A stretch of DNA of 63,953 bases, filler included, from an uncultured bacterium (lineage in GTDB: Bacteria > DAOPZR01), in NCBI GenBank assembly GCA_964637655.1. It is 12 parts of 12 records of this genome, joined end to end, with 100 filler letters (N's around TTAATTAATTAA, not from the genome) between each part and the next. Parts side by side here need not be neighbours in the genome. Positions count along the whole stretch, not along the records: positions 27,403 to 32,677 come from CAZWUZ010000263.1; 11 more parts are not named here. One strand, 5' to 3'. Below are positions 4,089 through 32,777 of the stretch, piece after piece. Every line of letters starts with the position of its first letter. Position 1 is the stretch's first letter. Both the position numbers and the translations under genes were made by a program. The notes beneath the pieces are model-generated. The model worked only from the letters and a program-made list of their open reading frames with translations. It was not told where the DNA came from and searched no databases.

Positions 4089-4448
4089 TCAGGCGTGATT
4101 CCGGTAGCCCTTTTCCCGGAGCAGGGCGAGGCGGCAGGTGTCGCCGGTAAAGCGAAATCCGATAGCGACCTGCAGGGCGCACCGGGGGCAGATGGCGCCG
4201 TGCAGCGCGGTGTCCGTCGCGCCGGCAAGGAACCCCTCCGTTTCGGCGCGGAACTTCTCCGCGAGTGCTGCCGGCAGGCCGGGCAGACGGAAGGTACGGT
4301 CGGCGGCAAACGCCGCGGCGGTGGCGCGCAACGTCGCCTCCGGGAAACGCAGGTCGTAGCCGCAGACGGGACAGTGGTAGCGCAGCGGCCATTGTGTGAC
4401 CGTGCCATCAGGTGCCGAGGCGCAGCGTTCGCCGATGAGTTTCTGCAT
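4089..4448 (-). CDS. small Zn-ribbon-like hypothetical protein
   Basis: CPVCG and CPRC pairs. Confidence 0.5.
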   Translation of the reverse strand: MQKLIGERCASAPDGTVTQWPLRYHCPVCGYDLRFPEATLRATAAAFAADRTFRLPGLPAALAEKFRAETEGFLAGATDTALHGAICPRCALQVAIGFRFTGDTCRLALLREKGYRNHA

Positions 4449-4540
4449 GCACCGGTTATAACGTGTGTTCGTGTTGCGGGTCAACGTGCGGTTGACCGCG
4501 TCTGCCGACTGGTGCTACCATCGTGGGGGAGGCGCTGAGC

Positions 4541-5227
4541 ATGCTGAAGAAACTGCTGCTTGGGGCGGGTATCCTGCTCGCCGCGCTGGTGTTGTTCTGC
4601 GTTGGCTACTGGCTGAATTATTCGCAGGGGGTCATCGCCGGGAGCAGCATCGAGACGCCCGGGGCGACGCGCTGCCTCCTTATCGCCAGCCAGGGAAGCG
4701 ACTACAAGGAGGCGCTGGTGCGGAAACTGGTCGCGCGGCTGCAGGCGGACAGCGCGTCGGTACGACTGGTGGACGTCACGCAGCTGCCGACGGTGAACGA
4801 AGCGGACTATGCTGCCGCCATCCTGATTTGCAGCATCGAGTATTATGCCGCGCAGAAAGACGTGGCGGCGTACATCGCCGCGGCGCAGCGGCCGGAGCGC
4901 ATCGTGCTGCACACCACCTCGGGCCAGGGTGACATGCGCCCGCAGCAGTGCCGCATCGACGCTCTTACCGGCGCTTCACGAAGTGAACTGCTCGACGACC
5001 AGGCGGCAGCCATTCTCGCCCGCCTGCCGCGGCAGACACCAGAAGAGGAGCAGAACATGAACGATGAACGCGATAAGCAGCCATCAGCGGAACAGCCGCG
5101 GCAGGCGGCGCAACCGGGCAGTGCGCAGGAACTCGACGACCGCGAACTGGACAAGGTGACCGGCGGCGTCGTGAATTCCGGGATACTGCAGCCGCCGCAA
5201 CCGCCCGGGTCGTTCGGCCTGCATTGA
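4541..5227 (+). CDS. membrane-anchored flavodoxin-like hypothetical protein, read in frame into a C-terminal double-Gly peptide
   Basis: GGAGG RBS, N-terminal TM helix, LIASQGSDYK...HTTSGQG. Confidence 0.65.
   Translation: MLKKLLLGAGILLAALVLFCVGYWLNYSQGVIAGSSIETPGATRCLLIASQGSDYKEALVRKLVARLQADSASVRLVDVTQLPTVNEADYAAAILICSIEYYAAQKDVAAYIAAAQRPERIVLHTTSGQGDMRPQQCRIDALTGASRSELLDDQAAAILARLPRQTPEEEQNMNDERDKQPSAEQPRQAAQPGSAQELDDRELDKVTGGVVNSGILQPPQPPGSFGLH
5057..5227 (+). CDS. putative 56-aa precursor peptide with double-glycine leader (ELDDRELDKVTGG)
   Basis: Own GAGGAG RBS and ATG; leader matches the EL.D.EL..V.GG pattern. Confidence 0.45.
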   Translation: MNDERDKQPSAEQPRQAAQPGSAQELDDRELDKVTGGVVNSGILQPPQPPGSFGLH

Positions 5228-27402: not shown

Positions 27403-27920
27403 ATCAGTTCCATTTCTTTGGCCACCAGAGTGTCGAGCGCTTCACGCGCCTGCTGTGCGGCAAGACGACATTCACCCTCCTGCAGCGCATAGGCCTCGGC
27501 ATCACGATTCTCTTTGGCCAGCGCGATGATCCGGTCTATGCTCGCGCGATAGGTCTTGCGGGTCTCCTGGAAACGGGCAAGCAGTTCCCTGATCTCCGGT
27601 TCATCGATTTTTGCCTCGTACTCCTGCAGCAGTTCGCCGACCTTCTTCGACTGGTCGTTCAGCCCCTGCTCCTGCTTGGCGATGTCCGCAGGTGATTCCG
27701 CGCGGATGATGTCACGTAACTGCACCCGGAACAGCTGATACTCAGTGCGTACTTCCTGGATCGTCTTGATCGGCCCCATGAGGTCATCGAGCATGCCGGT
27801 ATAGTCGGCATTGGCCGTTTTCAACTCGTACGTCCCGTAGCCGCCAACTAGTGCGGTGAGCAATGCGACCAGCAGAAATCCACCAGTCAGTTTCTTCCCA
27901 ATCGAGATATTGTCCAGCAT
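27403..27920 (-). CDS. methyl-accepting chemotaxis protein, N-terminal TM1 and four-helix-bundle sensor (3' truncated); in frame with the upstream carbonic anhydrase
   Basis: MLDNISIGKKLTGGFLLVALL...Y.GM...L..I... is a typical 4HB_MCP start; own AGAGGGGG RBS; lies in a che operon. Confidence 0.8.
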
Positions 27921-28811
27921 GGCATTTCCCCCTCTGTGAAGCGCAATATGCCGGTCGCAGGCGGCCGGTTGTGCAACGGGTACTGCACGGCGCTGGCGCC
28001 AGAGCACGACGCCCAGCACCAGCAACAGCACGATTGCTCCTGTATACCCCCACGCGCGATGCCGCGCGGCGATCGTAAGGTCCTCTCCGAGCGTCTCGGG
28101 GTCAGCCATGGCCGCGACTGAGTGCCCGTCATAAACGACTTTGACCTCACCGCTCGCCAGGTGATAGCGCGCGCCGACGATGCCGATTTCTCCGCGTTGC
28201 AGCATCGCGCGAAGCGGTTCGCTGCGCGAGAGGATGCTGCGGATAACTTCCTCCAGGTTGGCATCGATACAGGCGGAAATATGTTCTGCTTCGTCGCCAT
28301 GCGCCGCGGTGCGCGCGACCGCCGGGCGGATGGCACTGACGATGGCCCCGATACTCCCCTCGTCACCGCCATGTCCACCATGCCCCTCCGCCGCCTGCAC
28401 GGAAGCGGTCACCGCCCCGCAGGCATCATGGGCGAGCACCACCAGCAGGCGCGACCCGGTATGTTCCATGGCATATTCGAGTGATCCGAGTGCCACCGGT
28501 GAGACGATGTTGCCGGCCGTGCGCACGACAAACAGGTCGCCCAGCCCGCGATTGAACAGCAGTTCCGGCGGCACCCGCGAATCGGCGCAGCCAAGCACGG
28601 CAACCGGCGGCTGCTGACCGGCGGTCAGTTCCGCACGGCGGGCAGGCGTACGGTGTCCGGCTGCCGTCCCGGCACGGAAGGCCTCATTATCAGCGAGTAG
28701 CGCTGCCAGCAGTTCGTCAGGCGCAGGGCCGCCGGCATGACCGCCGGTGGAGGAAGCGAAAGCCGGCAGTACCGCCAGCATCATCAGGACCAGCAGGGTG
28801 ATGGGCTTCAT
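27921..28811 (-). CDS. secreted, membrane-anchored beta-carbonic anhydrase; no stop codon before the MCP
   Basis: Signal peptide; LGCADSRVPPE, VVRTAGN, GSLEYA and HDACGAV motifs; C-terminal TM helix. Confidence 0.88.
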
Positions 28812-29509
28812 GCCGGTCCCCCTGTCATTGCCGGCGCAGCAAGCGGGACAACCGTGCCGGTGGCCAGCTCGTAGCGCGCCCCGATGATTTTGATTGAATT
28901 ATGCGCCTGCAGGTCCCGTATCGGCCGGCTGCGTTTGAGTATGGTGCTGATTACCGTGCGAACATTCTCATCCACGCATTGTGCGACATGTTCCTGCTCG
29001 CTGTGCCCTGCCCGCGGGATACGACGCACCACCGGCAGAATTTCTTCAACGACAGAGCCCAGATTGCCCGGAATACCGGTAGCGCTGCCGGCGGCAATTG
29101 TCGCTTTGACCGCGCCGCACTCGCTGTGTCCGAGCACGACCAGCAGCGGTGCCTGCAGGTGCACCAGCCCGTATTCCAGCGACTCGAGTTCAACCGGCGA
29201 GACAATGTTGCCCGCGGAGCGGACCACAAACACGTCACCAATCCCCTGGTCGAAGATGATTTCCGGCGGCACCCGCGAATCGGCGCAGCCCAGCAGCACC
29301 ACCTGCGGATGCTGGCCCGCGACGACCTCCGCACGACGGGCCGCGTGGTTCCGCACCCGGAACGTGCCGGCAACAAAACGTGCGTTCCCCTCTGCCAGTG
29401 CCAGCCAGGTGTCATCCGCACCGGGGGGAGGAGCGGCGCCTGCCAGCAGTGCCAGCGCCAGCAGGCAGCTGCCTGTGAGCACGCCGATGACGTGTCGACG
29501 TTCAGGCAT
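28808..29509 (-). CDS. secreted beta-carbonic anhydrase
   Basis: Signal peptide; L.EGNARF, LGCADSRVPPE, VVRSAGN and GHSECGAV motifs. Confidence 0.92.
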   Translation of the reverse strand: MPERRHVIGVLTGSCLLALALLAGAAPPPGADDTWLALAEGNARFVAGTFRVRNHAARRAEVVAGQHPQVVLLGCADSRVPPEIIFDQGIGDVFVVRSAGNIVSPVELESLEYGLVHLQAPLLVVLGHSECGAVKATIAAGSATGIPGNLGSVVEEILPVVRRIPRAGHSEQEHVAQCVDENVRTVISTILKRSRPIRDLQAHNSIKIIGARYELATGTVVPLAAPAMTGGPA

Positions 29510-29513
29510 GGTG

Positions 29514-29996
29514 TTATTCCTTGCCCTGGCGCATGCCGGCCAGCACGTTCATTTCCGCGCCGGTCAGCACCTTGTCGATGTCGAGCAGCATGCGCACCTT
29601 GTTCTCCGACTTGCCGATGCCGAGGATGTAGGCGGTATCGATCCCCGCCCCGAACTCCGGCGGCGCCTCGATATCCGCGGTGCCGATGTCCGAGACCTCC
29701 GACACACGGTCGACGATGATGCCCATTTCGAGCCCCTGCGTCTTGACGACGATGACACAGGTCTCCTCCGTCTGTTCCTTGGCCGGCATCGCCAGTTTCG
29801 CGCGCAGGTCGATGACCGGGATGATGTGACCGCGCAGGTTGATAACCCCTTTGATAAAGTCGGGCATGCGCGGCACCGGGGTAATGGCCATCATCCCGAT
29901 GATTTCCTGCACCTTCAATATCTCGATGCCGTACTCCTCCTCAGCGAGAAAAAAAGTCAGGAACTTCCCCCCCTGTATCGCTGCTGTCTCCGCCAT
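29514..29996 (-). CDS. cheW: chemotaxis coupling protein CheW
   Basis: FLTFFLAEEEYGIEILKVQEI, GVINLRG.IIPVIDLR and GIIVDRVSEV motifs. Confidence 0.95.
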   Translation of the reverse strand: MAETAAIQGGKFLTFFLAEEEYGIEILKVQEIIGMMAITPVPRMPDFIKGVINLRGHIIPVIDLRAKLAMPAKEQTEETCVIVVKTQGLEMGIIVDRVSEVSDIGTADIEAPPEFGAGIDTAYILGIGKSENKVRMLLDIDKVLTGAEMNVLAGMRQGKE

Positions 29997-30044
29997 AACC
30001 GCCTCCTTGTTATGCATTTCCTGTATGGTCACGCGTCGTGCGCG

Positions 30045-32180
30045 TCATCTGTCCTGCTGCGGGGCAAGCGCACGCGGATCGAGGATCAGGCCGACATTGC
30101 CGTCCCCGAGGATGGCGCCGCCCGACACCCCATCGACTTTGCCGATCCCTTCGCCCAGCGACTTGGCCACCACCTGCACCTGCCCGAGCAGTTCGTCAAC
30201 CAGAATGGCGAAATTAGCCTGCCCTTCGTTGATGAGCATGAGCAGCCCGTCCGTAAGCGCCTCGCAGGCGCCCGGCAGGCCGAAGTGACGGTGCAATCGC
30301 ACCACGGGGATGAGTTCGTCCTGAAAGCGAACCATTTCGCCACGCCCGGCGATGGTCGACAGCATGTCCGGCTCCGGCTTGAGCGTGGTGCGGATGGCGA
30401 GCAACGGCACGACATAGCGCTGGTCAGCCACGCGCACGACCATACCGTCAGTGATGGCCATGGTGAGCGGCACGCGGATAATGAAGGTGCACCCCTGTCC
30501 GGGACGGTTGCGGATCTCGATGAGGCCGCGCAGCCCCTCAATGGCACGTTTGACCACGTCCATGCCGACCCCGCGTCCCGAGACGTCAGAGACGACCTCC
30601 GCGGTGGAGAACCCCGCGGCGAAGATGAGCAGGTTGACCGCGTCGTCGGACGGTTCCTCGTCCGCCGCCACCATCCCGTTCTTCCGCGCCTTGGCGAGAA
30701 TACGGCCGCGGTCGAGCCCCGCCCCGTCATCCTCGATTTCGAAAACGACGTTGCCGCCGGCGTGGTAGGCGGAGAGTTTCACCGTCCCCGCCTCCGGCTT
30801 GCCGCGCTGTGTGCGGACATCAGGCGCCTCAACCCCGTGGTCGCAGGAGTTGCGTACCATGTGCACCAGCACGTCGTTGATGGCTTCGACCATGTTGCGG
30901 TCGATCTCGGTGTCCTCGCCTGAGGTGACGAAGCCGATATTCTTGCCGCTCTTGCGCGACAGGTCGCGCACGAGACGCTGCATCTTCTGGAAGGTCTGGC
31001 GCAGCGGCACGAGGCGCATCGCCATGCCGAGCGTCTGCAGTTCGCGCACGATCTTTGCCGACTGCTCCACCTTGCGCAGCAGTTCGTAGTGCTGCCCGTC
31101 CGTGGCGGTCGGGTCGGCGTCGAGCATCGACTGGGCGATGACCAGCTCCCCGACAAGATTGACCAGGCGGTCGAGCCGGTCGGTGCGCACCCGCGTGGTC
31201 GCTTCCGCCGTTGCGGTCGCCGCCGCTTCCGGTTTCCCCTGCTGCTGGCGCAGCGCCTGCCCGACTTCGCTGGCCGAGGCGACCTGCGCGCGCACCAGCG
31301 CCTCGCCGATTGGGGCGTCGCCCTTGCTGGCGGCCACCGCCTCGATCTCCTCGGCCGTCGCCGTACCCTCGGCAACGAGGATGTCCCCCAGGCGCTGTGC
31401 GCGCCCGGCGGGCACCGTGGCGGCCCCGGCGACGAGGTCGAGGTTGCGCAATTTGTGCATCTGCCCGTCGAAGGCTTCCGGCTTGCGCACCGGACTGCCG
31501 CCCAGCGCGTCCTGTATCCCCTGTACCAGTTCCTTCATCAGGTCGACCGAGGCGAGCGCCAGGTCGGCATAGGCGGGGGTATAGCGGATTTCCCCCTCGC
31601 GCACGCGCGAGAGGAACGACTCGGTGTGGTGCGCCAGTTCCGAGACCATGCGGAAACCGAGGAAGGCAGCCATCCCCTTCATCGTGTGGAAGGCACGGAA
31701 GATGGTGTTGATCGCCTCCTTGTCGTCCGGGTTGGTTTCGAGCGTGAGGAGCGAGCCCTCGGCAAAGCCGATGTTGTCGCGGCTCTCCGTGATGAAATCC
31801 GCCATCATGCCGGCGTCAAGATCGGCAGGAAGCACTTCCTCCGGCGGGAAGACCTCCATGTGCGCGGGTGCCGCCGGCGCGGCCGCGGCTGCCGGGGCGG
31901 GCGTGGCTGACGAGGGGAGAGGCTCCTCCGCCTCGGTTTCCGCCACCTGCTGCGCCGTCTCGATGAACATGCCCGCCACCGTCAAGGCCATGGCATCGCC
32001 GTCGACGCATTCCGCGACGGCGTTGCGCGCCTGGGTCAGCCGTTCGCCGACGCGGACACTGACACCGCTGCCGGCCAGCAGCGTGTCGAGCGACGCGAGC
32101 AGCAGCCGCAGGTGTTCCGGGTTGTCGGCATCCGCCTGGACCAGCAGTCGCGCGATGTCGTGCAGGGTCGGGTTGTCCAT
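30045..32180 (-). CDS. cheA: chemotaxis histidine kinase CheA
   Basis: Hpt IFRAFHTMKG, LVNLVGELVI, HMVRNSCDHG, DDGAG, GFSTA..VSDVSGRGVGMDVV and a CheW-like domain. Confidence 0.95.
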   Translation of the reverse strand: MDNPTLHDIARLLVQADADNPEHLRLLLASLDTLLAGSGVSVRVGERLTQARNAVAECVDGDAMALTVAGMFIETAQQVAETEAEEPLPSSATPAPAAAAAPAAPAHMEVFPPEEVLPADLDAGMMADFITESRDNIGFAEGSLLTLETNPDDKEAINTIFRAFHTMKGMAAFLGFRMVSELAHHTESFLSRVREGEIRYTPAYADLALASVDLMKELVQGIQDALGGSPVRKPEAFDGQMHKLRNLDLVAGAATVPAGRAQRLGDILVAEGTATAEEIEAVAASKGDAPIGEALVRAQVASASEVGQALRQQQGKPEAAATATAEATTRVRTDRLDRLVNLVGELVIAQSMLDADPTATDGQHYELLRKVEQSAKIVRELQTLGMAMRLVPLRQTFQKMQRLVRDLSRKSGKNIGFVTSGEDTEIDRNMVEAINDVLVHMVRNSCDHGVEAPDVRTQRGKPEAGTVKLSAYHAGGNVVFEIEDDGAGLDRGRILAKARKNGMVAADEEPSDDAVNLLIFAAGFSTAEVVSDVSGRGVGMDVVKRAIEGLRGLIEIRNRPGQGCTFIIRVPLTMAITDGMVVRVADQRYVVPLLAIRTTLKPEPDMLSTIAGRGEMVRFQDELIPVVRLHRHFGLPGACEALTDGLLMLINEGQANFAILVDELLGQVQVVAKSLGEGIGKVDGVSGGAILGDGNVGLILDPRALAPQQDR

Positions 32181-32212
32181 GCCGTGCCTCAATGCGACGC
32201 GATCGGCGTCGC

Positions 32213-32590
32213 TTATTTCCAGCGGTCGATCTTGGCGTTCAGGTGCTTCACTTCGTCCACAAGTTCCTGCATCGAGCGGAACGGCTTGGTGAAGTAGTCG
32301 GTCGCCCCCTGCCCGAGGCAGTGCACGACATTGTCCATCGAGGTGAACCCGGTGATCATGACGATATTGACCAGCGGGTTGTATTCCTTCAGGCGCACGA
32401 TGAGGTCCTTGCCGTCGACGTCAGGCAGGCGGATATCGCAGAGCACGATATTGTGCAGTTTCGCGCGGTAAAGGTTCAGCGCCGCCTCACCGGTCATGGC
32501 GGTCTCCACCGGGAAGCCCGCCAGTTTCAGGTAGCGGGCCAGCAGTTCGAGGATGGCCTCTTCGTCGTCGATAATCAGCACCGATTCCAT
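32213..32590 (-). CDS. single-domain response regulator
   Basis: LIIDDE, LCDIRLPDVDG, MITG and DYFTKPF motifs. Confidence 0.9.
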   Translation of the reverse strand: MESVLIIDDEEAILELLARYLKLAGFPVETAMTGEAALNLYRAKLHNIVLCDIRLPDVDGKDLIVRLKEYNPLVNIVMITGFTSMDNVVHCLGQGATDYFTKPFRSMQELVDEVKHLNAKIDRWK

Positions 32591-32601
32591 GTTTCCTGAC
32601 C

Positions 32602-32676
32602 TCATGCCTCAGCCGTGGCGAGCACGGTTTTCTTGAACTCCGCCCGCGAGCGGAAGGGTTTGGTGACAAACGCCGC
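32602..32676 (-). CDS. C-terminus of a receiver-domain protein (5' truncated)
   Basis: AAFVTKPFRSRAEFKKTV. Confidence 0.55.
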   Translation of the reverse strand, partial: AAFVTKPFRSRAEFKKTVLATAEA

Positions 32677-32777
32677 GNNNNNNNNNNNNNNNNNNNNNNN
32701 NNNNNNNNNNNNNNNNNNNNNTTAATTAATTAANNNNNNNNNNNNNNNNNNNNNNNNNNNNNNNNNNNNNNNNNNNN

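Follow-up and report, generated by a model that had tools for sequence, protein, structure and literature searches.

A probable carbonic anhydrase-chemoreceptor fusion in a bacterial chemotaxis operon: a candidate CO2/bicarbonate sensor

A chemotaxis operon in a metagenome-assembled genome (MAG) carries two beta-carbonic anhydrase (CA) genes, the second of which very probably runs in frame into a chemoreceptor (MCP). We assign a probability of about 0.55 to the reading of these genes as a dedicated chemosensory operon (receiver, cheY, cheA, cheW) with an enzyme-coupled sensor for its receptor, acting through CA-derived HCO3-/H+. As judged from the genes, the cells would probably steer by CO2, by bicarbonate or by the acid formed from them.

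Results

The chemotaxis operon

The window, that is, the whole stretch of DNA analysed (63,953 nucleotides), is made up of 12 contigs of the MAG, with 100-base N/TTAATTAATTAA spacers between them; its source is an uncultured bacterium from wastewater. Positions 27403-32677 are exactly one whole contig (C263, 5275 bp), on which an ORF scan gave the gene order receiver tail, cheY, cheA, cheW, CA1, CA2::MCP, all on the minus strand. The first gene is represented by its 3' end (32602..32677; 23 codons and a stop, reading ...AAFVTKPFRSRAEFKKTVLATAEA*), and this tail (AAFVTKPF...) is a receiver by motif alone, the piece being too short for a Pfam test; KPF motifs are typical of receiver domains. Its TGA overlaps the ATG of cheY (ATGA), which encodes a single-domain response regulator of 130 aa (32213..32605; Response_reg 2.8e-26, residues 9-119). 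The histidine kinase gene cheA (30045..32192) encodes 715 aa from a TTG, with an alternative ATG 12 nt downstream, and its product has Hpt, dimerisation (H-kinase_dim), ATPase (HATPase_c) and CheW-like (CheW) domains in Pfam; its match to NCBIfam CheA (9.9e-131) falls under the equivalog cut-off. For cheW (29514..30032; CheW 3.9e-40 in Pfam), translation more likely begins at the ATG at 29996, which is preceded by AAGGAGG. CheA, CheW and CheY are clustered with the receptor gene on this contig, and no CheB or CheR was found on it.

The earlier note had described the order receiver-receiver-cheA-cheW-CA1-CA2/MCP, tightly packed. The coordinates agree with the packing, with a gap of 4 bp between cheW and CA1 and an overlap of 4 bp (ATGA) between CA1 and CA2, and Pfam bears out cheY, cheA, cheW and the CA genes, the first receiver being the 23-codon piece named by its motif. 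Elsewhere, the MAG carries seven flagellin-type matches, FliG and a second cheA. Given these flagellar genes, the output of the pathway is likely swimming.

The two carbonic anhydrases

CA1 (28808..29509, minus strand) is a free beta-CA of 233 aa (Pro_CA 3.5e-37), and the catalytic domain of CA2 occupies residues 23-226 of the fusion (28134..28745, minus strand), as judged by Pfam, a PDB match, a fold match and a residue check. Pro_CA (PF00484) gave 128.5 bits for CA1 and 119.7 bits for CA2 against a curated cut-off of 25.7, and the match in the fusion ORF covers residues 71-223 (1.8e-34). The two share 49% identity across 201 residues. The intact zinc ligands ascribed to both enzymes earlier are indeed kept in each: Cys75, Asp77 and Arg79 (CxDxR, here CADSR at 75) and His128 and Cys131 (HxxC at 128). 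Among solved structures, CA2 is closest in sequence to Rv3588c (9.2e-31). In the AlphaFold2 model of the fusion ORF (mean pLDDT 75), the CA2 part has a pLDDT of 80-95 and was matched by Foldseek to 2A5V_C (E 2.4e-14, target-normalised TM-score 0.88, 34% identity), so that model and search both give CA2 the beta-CA fold.

A hydropathy scan detected an N-terminal hydrophobic segment in both CA1 (7-25) and CA2, from which the two enzymes are predicted to be probably exported. The signal peptides proposed for them in the earlier note thus stand as N-terminal hydrophobic segments, the peptide itself being judged by hydropathy alone. In CA1, the N-terminal MPERRH and the hydrophobic stretch could be a twin-arginine signal. 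A third paralogue with predicted export, CA3, lies elsewhere in the genome and adjoins a 2-oxoacid:ferredoxin oxidoreductase-like gene. In the CA tree, CA1, CA2 and CA3 fall in a single unresolved group. We rejected CA1 and CA2 as orthologues of domains 1 and 2 of tandem-CA proteins, in which the tandem domains pair within their own protein.

Architecture of the fusion ORF

The CA2::MCP fusion ORF (27403..28811, minus strand; ORF scan and Pfam) comprises 469 codons, its 3' end being lost at the contig end. After the CA domain comes an extra membrane helix, TM0 (residues 253-271; 27999..28055; hydropathy 2.05), which lies within a model helix at residues 244-275 and is followed by RQRR. A short basic loop, inferred to be cytoplasmic, occupies residues 272-297 (27921..27998), with pLDDT below 50 at residues 272-299. 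Residues 301-464 (27420..27911) then form TM1 and a four-helix-bundle sensor (4HB_MCP_1 7.7e-32, profile positions 1-164 of 181), which also matches TarH (1.5e-10); hydropathy places TM1 at residues 304-322, and the model helices of the sensor span residues 304-370, 374-401, 405-434 and 438-468. TM1 and most of the bundle are present, and TM2 lies past the contig end, HAMP and the signalling domain also being absent from C263.

No MCPsignal domain was found on C263, the seven MCPsignal matches of the MAG all being on other contigs, and a comparison of contig ends at k = 15-55 gave no overlap between C263 and the rest of the MAG. An N-terminally cut MCP (C473) was ruled out as the continuation, as it has about 80 residues ahead of its TM2. 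One public contig extends 555 nt past the C263 end. The earlier identification of the downstream part as an MCP agrees with Pfam, which assigns a 4HB chemoreceptor sensor, and with full-length relatives of like plan, which end in HAMP and MCPsignal. Likewise, the argument that CA2, continuing through a membrane helix and linker into TM1, would sit on the same outer side as the sensor holds for this architecture.

Fused and che-linked CAs in other genomes

A search for Pro_CA plus MCP architectures, as suggested earlier, recovered the fusion across many database proteins. The plan of signal, CA, extra TM, loop, TM1, helical sensor, TM2, HAMP and MCPsignal is shared by at least 12 further database proteins, either with one CA (SP-CA-TM0-loop-TM1-sensor-TM2 in P0001-3, P0068, P0077, P0116, P0121 and P0132) or with two (P0019, P0024, P0025, P0031 and P0034); P0004 and G036 instead carry the CA as an insertion within the sensor. 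The order of hydrophobic segments is common to the C263 fusion and 13 relatives with an N-terminal CA, although the KD scan did not pick up the first segment in 4 of these 13 or a single later helix in P0001 and P0003, and TM0 is present in every other N-terminal CA-MCP protein scanned. The design is a rare one, occurring in 2 of the 401 genomes sampled. In the CA tree, the 'MCP-fused' label changes at least three times on starred branches, as gains or losses. A metagenome scan with the fusion as its single query returned no close relatives, a near-length protein search gave no MCP domain among the best 120 of 209 matches (identity at most 49%, over the CA part alone), the ESM Atlas returned nothing but generic 4HB clusters (all scores below 0.9), and none of seven long CA-bearing frames from the sampled genomes had MCPsignal similarity.

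The earlier note knew of no described system of this layout. This is true of the literature searched, in which no description of a CA-chemoreceptor fusion was found, but not of the public databases, where such proteins already stand, one of them auto-named 'methyl-accepting chemotaxis protein/carbonic anhydrase' by JGI. PMC3543383 was rejected as a precedent, CA and chemoreceptors appearing in unrelated passages of that article.

Linkage of CA to che genes, likewise anticipated, was found in other phyla. Unfused cheW-CA-MCP or cheA-CA-MCP operons occur in MAGs of Nitrospirota, Acidobacteriota and Planctomycetota. The loci comprise cheW-CA-MCP (L024), cheA-cheW-CA-MCP-cheB-cheR (L025), cheA-cheW-MCP-CA.CA (L070) and cheA-CA-MCP (L172), with L024, L025 and L070 in three different phyla. 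Among close CA relatives, che-linked loci number 3 of 80 and 2 of 80, and most are without linkage. The sole same-family genome has a 4HB MCP directly after cheW and gave no Pro_CA match.

One unlikely alternative to the enzyme-coupled reading is that the CA domain is itself a ligand-binding module, in which CO2, bicarbonate, another anion or a pH change at the zinc alters the CA dimer and is relayed via TM0 or by docking to the bundle, catalysis being unneeded. The proteins with a CA within the periplasmic helical domain (P0004, G036) make direct coupling plausible, the nearest solved relative, Rv3588c, has a described pH-dependent switch, and the CA is the constant element among helical sensors whose sequences are not conserved in the alignment. 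However, the linkers of the N-terminal type vary from about 13 to 88 residues and are low-complexity and of low model confidence, so that they would transmit force poorly and fit with a tether; the full catalytic set (C75, D77, R79, H128, C131) is unchanged in every one of the 9 CA-MCP proteins aligned, which is what a need for turnover would predict; and free or unfused CAs in che operons (CA1, L024, L025, L172) cannot signal mechanically.

Less probable still, in our estimate, is that the CAs are housekeeping periplasmic enzymes of carbon acquisition or pH buffering (for example, holding the periplasmic CO2/HCO3- pair in balance to spare other signals from distortion) parked in a che operon or in receptor arrays, CO2 not being the cue. 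Most relatives stand alone or bear wall or membrane anchors (LysM, SPOR, Porin_O_P or a C-terminal TM), the third exported paralogue has the oxidoreductase-like gene for a neighbour, and SulP-CA fusions show a frequent tie of CA to bicarbonate transport. Against this, covalent fusion to a chemoreceptor has a history of three or more gains or losses and comes in two different geometries, and CA genes are placed exactly between cheW or cheA and an MCP in three other phyla, a repeated fusion and placement that are hard to explain without a signalling role.

The junction between CA2 and the receptor

The ORF scan showed no stop in frame from CA2 into the MCP. The segment 27920-28412 is identical and free of indels in public contigs from runs X1 and X2, and contigs of both runs cover the loop (27921-27998) without difference, in keeping with the earlier claim of a frame with no stop. 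Read support is thin, with a depth of 2-6, and comes from one study, maybe the MAG's own source; nothing bridges 27625-27920, no public contig covers 27625-27846 and no record spans the entire stretch. GC at the three codon positions is 0.77/0.50/0.70 in the linker, TM0 and loop vs 0.78/0.53/0.70 in the CA domain.

The MCP was also said to have its own ribosome-binding site and ATG at 27920, and the ATG and a candidate site are indeed present. The internal ATG (Met298; 27918..27920, minus strand) begins the canonical MCP N-terminus MLDNISIGKKL (compare the unfused MCPs in L024, L025 and G001), with a Shine-Dalgarno-like AGGGGGA (27927..27933) 6 nt upstream, and the same heptamer recurs at 28817-28823, 5 nt ahead of the CA2 ATG. 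An internal start at Met298 may therefore also yield an unfused receptor.

We consider the fusion very probably real, because the linker encodes a membrane helix without which the topology would not work, public contigs of two runs show the junction unchanged and the plan recurs in many independent database proteins, which also argues against a sequencing artefact. Least probable of the alternatives is that the proteins are separate here, CA2 being a C-terminally membrane-anchored enzyme and the receptor starting at Met298, with the continuous frame due to an assembly or sequencing error or the internal start alone in use: the motif shared with the CA2 start, the normal MCP N-terminus, the many database tandem CAs that stop just past a single TM and the low coverage of a fragmented MAG would favour it, but the open frame, the indel-free junction in X1 and X2, the codon-position GC matching that of the CA domain and the at least 12 fused proteins of like plan all count against it. 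Even with separate proteins, the functional link between CA and receptor would stand.

Discussion

In the mechanism that we propose for the enzyme-coupled sensor, the signal peptide would place CA2 in the periplasm, TM0 would bring the chain back to the cytoplasm and TM1 would lead out again. CA2 would then hang on a flexible tether, alongside the periplasmic four-helix bundle of the receptor dimer to which it belongs, with CA1 as a free periplasmic partner. Without catalysis, CO2 is hydrated over seconds to tens of seconds, whereas a swimming cell makes its temporal comparisons over roughly one second; the uncatalysed reaction is therefore too slow for such a cell. A tethered CA would let local HCO3- and H+ track ambient CO2 within milliseconds, and the 4HB domain would sense HCO3- or H+ and control CheA. 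The likeliest predicted function of the CA is thus to let HCO3-/H+ in the periplasm keep up with CO2 at a pace that chemotaxis can use. Because the sensor sequences of CA-MCP proteins are unconserved, they point to no shared site for bicarbonate or protons.

A fuller version of this reading, which we hold tentatively and at somewhat less than even odds, is that of a dedicated CO2-taxis pathway in which CA1 and CA2 form a working dimer (a split CA-CA-MCP), the internal start governs how many receptors in the array carry the enzyme relative to those without it, and the whole is an enzyme-coupled chemoreceptor convergent with animal CO2 sensing and was invented several times in bacteria.

To our knowledge, there is essentially no known mechanism by which motile bacteria detect CO2 or bicarbonate. 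A receptor bearing the enzyme that makes CO2 'visible' is a concrete and testable mechanism and would add a class of enzyme-coupled chemoreceptors. The C263 locus offers a compact test set, in which CAs in free and tethered form are combined with a 4HB sensor and a dedicated CheA, CheW and CheY. In sludge, sediments and hosts, gradients of CO2 are a sign of respiration, fermentation and niches for autotrophs, and a CO2 sense could therefore shape where these organisms live.

Comparison with known systems

The C263 receptor resembles Tar/Tsr-type chemoreceptors in having TM1 followed by a periplasmic four-helix bundle (4HB_MCP_1/TarH) and in that its gene adjoins cheA and cheW, but a predicted exported enzyme and an additional membrane helix stand ahead of its TM1. 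Sensitivity to pH is known for Tar and Tsr as well. Rv3588c (CanB) of Mycobacterium tuberculosis (PDB 2A5V/1YM3) is the best sequence and fold match to the CA part and has the same CxDxR/HxxC zinc site; it is free-standing and has no receptor, whereas the C263 CAs have N-terminal signal-like segments and one is receptor-fused. In SulP-family anion transporter-beta-CA proteins (P0005-P0007, by NCBI/UniRef names; L018), a beta-CA is likewise covalently linked to a membrane protein acting on the enzyme's product, but the CA lies at the C-terminus of those proteins and is paired with a transporter rather than a sensor. Animal CO2 chemosensation employs Car4 in sour-taste cells and CAII in GC-D olfactory neurons; there too a CA turns CO2 into HCO3-/H+ and a nearby receptor detects the product, although neither the proteins nor the signalling chains are related to those here, and the enzyme is a separate polypeptide from the receptor. 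Finally, TlpA of Helicobacter pylori, the one reported bicarbonate receptor, whose mechanism is not known, has been described as a chemoreceptor for arginine and bicarbonate, that report leaving unsettled whether bicarbonate itself or the resulting pH is the cue (PMC5245789). Compared by description, TlpA is similarly a bacterial MCP tied to bicarbonate attraction, but no CA figures as a part of the receptor in the passages on bicarbonate (PMC5245789).

The operon and its carbonic anhydrases

The finding occupies the whole of contig C263 (27403-32677) and no more. All of its genes lie on the minus strand in an ORF scan, and Pfam identified cheY (32213-32605), cheA (30045-32192; Hpt, dimerisation, ATPase and CheW-like domains), cheW (29514-30032), the beta-carbonic anhydrase (CA) gene CA1 (28808-29509; Pro_CA, 3.5e-37) and a 469-codon ORF open at the contig end (27403-28811), in which a second CA, CA2 (Pro_CA, residues 71-223, 1.8e-34), is followed by the four-helix-bundle (4HB) sensor of a chemoreceptor (MCP; 4HB_MCP_1, residues 301-464, 7.7e-32). 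The tight packing described in the earlier note was reproduced, with cheW and CA1 lying 4 bp apart and CA1 and CA2 overlapping by ATGA. Its first receiver gene stood only in part: the ...TKPF... end is receiver-like by motif alone, but just 23 codons are left upstream of cheY. CheA has ~125 residues N-terminal of its Hpt domain, including an Ala/Pro-rich stretch, and its residues 266-286 weakly matched the NCBIfam model of an MshE-type c-di-GMP-binding motif, below threshold (E 1.2e-4; 21.8 bits against a cut-off of 38).

CA1 and CA2 are 49% identical across 201 residues, and the zinc-ligand motifs are intact in both (Cys75, Asp77, Arg79, His128, Cys131). The nearest solved structure is Mycobacterium tuberculosis Rv3588c (2A5V/1YM3; 9.2e-31), and an AlphaFold2 model of the fused ORF (mean pLDDT 75.2; CA part 80-95) superposed on 2A5V with a TM-score of 0.88. 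A hydropathy scan detected a hydrophobic segment at each N-terminus, from which we infer export of both enzymes; MPERRH of CA1 could be a twin-arginine signal. A third paralogue in the same genome (locus L183, G000:C115:5670-6644), with a hydrophobic leader and ~50% identity to CA2, sits between a Flp/Fap-pilin-like ORF and a POR_N/PFOR_II 2-oxoacid:ferredoxin-oxidoreductase-like gene; a glycosyltransferase is also nearby, and no che genes were found near it.

Evidence for an in-frame fusion

The frame runs from CA2 into the MCP without a stop. Hydropathy and the model place ~27 residues after the CA domain, followed by a hydrophobic helix (residues 253-271; TM0) and RQRR; a basic loop of 26 residues leads from there to Met298 and an ordinary MCP N-terminus, which comprises TM1 and four helices. 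A periplasmic enzyme can only be linked to a receptor's cytoplasmic N-terminus through an extra helix such as TM0. Chance read-through of an intergenic spacer is disfavoured because such a spacer would supply no membrane helix. At the three codon positions, G+C in the linker, TM0 and loop (0.77/0.50/0.70) matches the values for the CA domain (0.78/0.53/0.70).

The junction itself was recovered in public data: Logan contigs from two runs, spanning 27920-28076 and 27924-28412, show zero differences or indels, and 27625-27846 is uncovered. Contig depth is only 2-6 and both runs come from one study, possibly the source of the metagenome-assembled genome (MAG) itself, so this support is weak and non-independent. 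The public runs holding pieces of C263 are wastewater and activated-sludge metagenomes. A 636-nt contig among them (run X2, record 8) matches the final 81 bases of C263 (27403-27483) and extends 555 nt past its end; the TM2/HAMP region that C263 lacks should lie in these public data.

The MAG has 485 contigs and 3.99 Mb (completeness 90.6%, contamination 3.6%), with G+C of 65.5% vs 64.4% for C263. The window's 12 contigs (C258-C266, C268, C269 and C298) are length-ordered, non-contiguous DNA separated by 100 bases of N with TTAATTAATTAA at the centre, and ORFs reaching into these spacers are artefacts.

The putative internal start of the MCP has AGGGGGA 6 nt ahead of the ATG at 27920. The same motif lies 5 nt ahead of the CA2 ATG, C263 holds a third copy within cheA, and the window as a whole has 15 copies where 5.2 would be expected. 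From Met298 onwards the sequence resembles the unfused MCP N-termini of loci L024 and L025 and of the same-family genome G001, and three of nine fused proteins have Met at this alignment column; Met298 is therefore a relic of an ancestral start, which may or may not still be in use.

Recurrence in other proteins and genomes

Recurrence is the strongest argument for a real fusion. A search of longer proteins (8000 candidates scored) gave seven matches at E <= 0.001, of which four combine Pro_CA with MCPsignal, the other three being SulP-CA fusions. Exhaustive searching of 1.84 billion representatives yielded 654 matches at E <= 1e-30; Pfam was applied to the 74 proteins of >= 340 aa among the best 150, and 9 of these 74 combine Pro_CA with MCPsignal, either with two CA domains (P0019, P0024, P0025, P0031, P0034) or with one (P0068, P0116, P0121, P0132). 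P0077 has Pro_CA and 4HB and is probably a cut sequence, and most of the remainder are tandem CA-CA proteins. The JGI automatic name of P0003 reflects the CA-MCP architecture, which is thus already visible in databases. By hydropathy scan, the N-terminal-CA forms are all alike (leader, CA domain or domains, TM0, short loop, TM1, helical sensor, TM2), whereas in P0004 and genome G036 the CA sits within the periplasmic helical domain. When nine proteins of the N-terminal type were aligned, zinc ligands and Asp-Arg dyad proved invariant and the sensor domains barely alignable. Taken together, the original observation of a CA-chemoreceptor fusion in a che operon is confirmed, and we put the probability that the fusion is real at about 90%.

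Other relatives carry different partners. P0023 and P0038 (976-988 aa) join tandem CA-CA to a Porin_O_P-like C-terminal half, and Pfam assigned LysM (P0113), SPOR (P0131) and BACON_2 (P0115) tails, so envelope anchoring of exported beta-CAs seems to take several forms. About 27 tandem CA-CA proteins (P0021, P0041, P0060 and ~24 others) have one hydrophobic helix beyond the last CA domain, in most <= ~45 residues from the C-terminus. These could be enzymes anchored by their C-terminal end, a stage that has TM0 but no fusion, or genes truncated where contigs end. Top matches to the CA part included two multi-domain beta-CA proteins of 750-765 aa (P0159, P0163), from a dinoflagellate (NCBI name Durusdinium trenchii) and an MMETSP transcriptome.

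Linkage without fusion was found in 3 of 80 loci taken as best CA matches from species-representative genomes, the CA adjoining an MCP inside a che cluster: cheW-CA-MCP(4HB)-cheW-MCP-cheR in a Nitrospiraceae MAG (L024; CA-MCP gap 33 bp, CA without TM anchor), cheA-cheW-cheW-CA-MCP-cheB-cheR in an Acidobacteriaceae MAG (L025) and cheA-cheW-MCP-CA.CA in a Planctomycetia MAG (L070). All MCPsignal ORFs of the 80 loci fall in these three, a rough sign that CA placement is non-random. The two L024 cheW genes (202-693 and 4136-4627) are identical across 163 aa save near the C-terminus, each with an MCP one or two genes later, as if a cheW-(CA)-MCP module had recently been duplicated. Among 80 metagenome CA loci (median length 3.6 kb), L172 reads cheA-CA-MCP and L112 cheW-CA.

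In a broad sample, 145 of 401 genomes had a Pro_CA match (E <= 1e-10); among the 150 matches listed (29 further matches exist), a CA within an MCP frame occurred only in this MAG and G036, and seven other long frames with a C-terminal CA showed no MCPsignal similarity. In a quick maximum-likelihood tree built from 101 CA domains, 13 changes were needed to account for the MCP-fused label, at least three forced by starred branches, and five for the five che-linked rows. The three CAs of the MAG grouped with P0042, P0001/P0003 and P0068 (SH-aLRT 94, not starred), and the two domains of tandem proteins paired within one protein, not across proteins. The fusion is rare but polyphyletic. In G001, the only same-family genome (90% complete), a cheW 60% identical to that of C263 is directly followed by a 4HB MCP and no Pro_CA match was found; the C263 CA genes therefore reflect lineage-specific addition or loss. 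In place of cheA, a receiver-histidine-kinase hybrid precedes this pair (L020, G001:C313, 1764-2636); in BLASTP it resembled neither Hpt nor CheA.

Proposed function and comparison with known systems

The analysis shows the architecture, the catalytic residues, the operon setting and the recurrence; export, topology, enzyme activity, cue and output are predictions. CA-coupled CO2 sensing is a plausible reading of these sequences, which we hold slightly better than even. Tethered CA2 and free CA1, if active, would hold periplasmic HCO3-/H+ in fast equilibrium with CO2, and the 4HB, predicted to lie on the same side, would sense one product (HCO3- or H+) and drive the operon's own CheA/CheW/CheY. 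The genome also has flagellin genes, FliG and another cheA cluster, and the C263 system would therefore be a second, dedicated motility input. The variable, low-confidence linkers of the N-terminal-CA type argue for proximity over mechanical coupling; the CA-inserted type (P0004, G036) leaves room for direct coupling.

Full-text searches of the literature outside subscription journals turned up no paper describing a bacterial chemoreceptor with a CA attached or as its partner; the passages of PMC3543383 were irrelevant. According to PMC5245789, TlpA is reported to sense bicarbonate through a mechanism not yet known.
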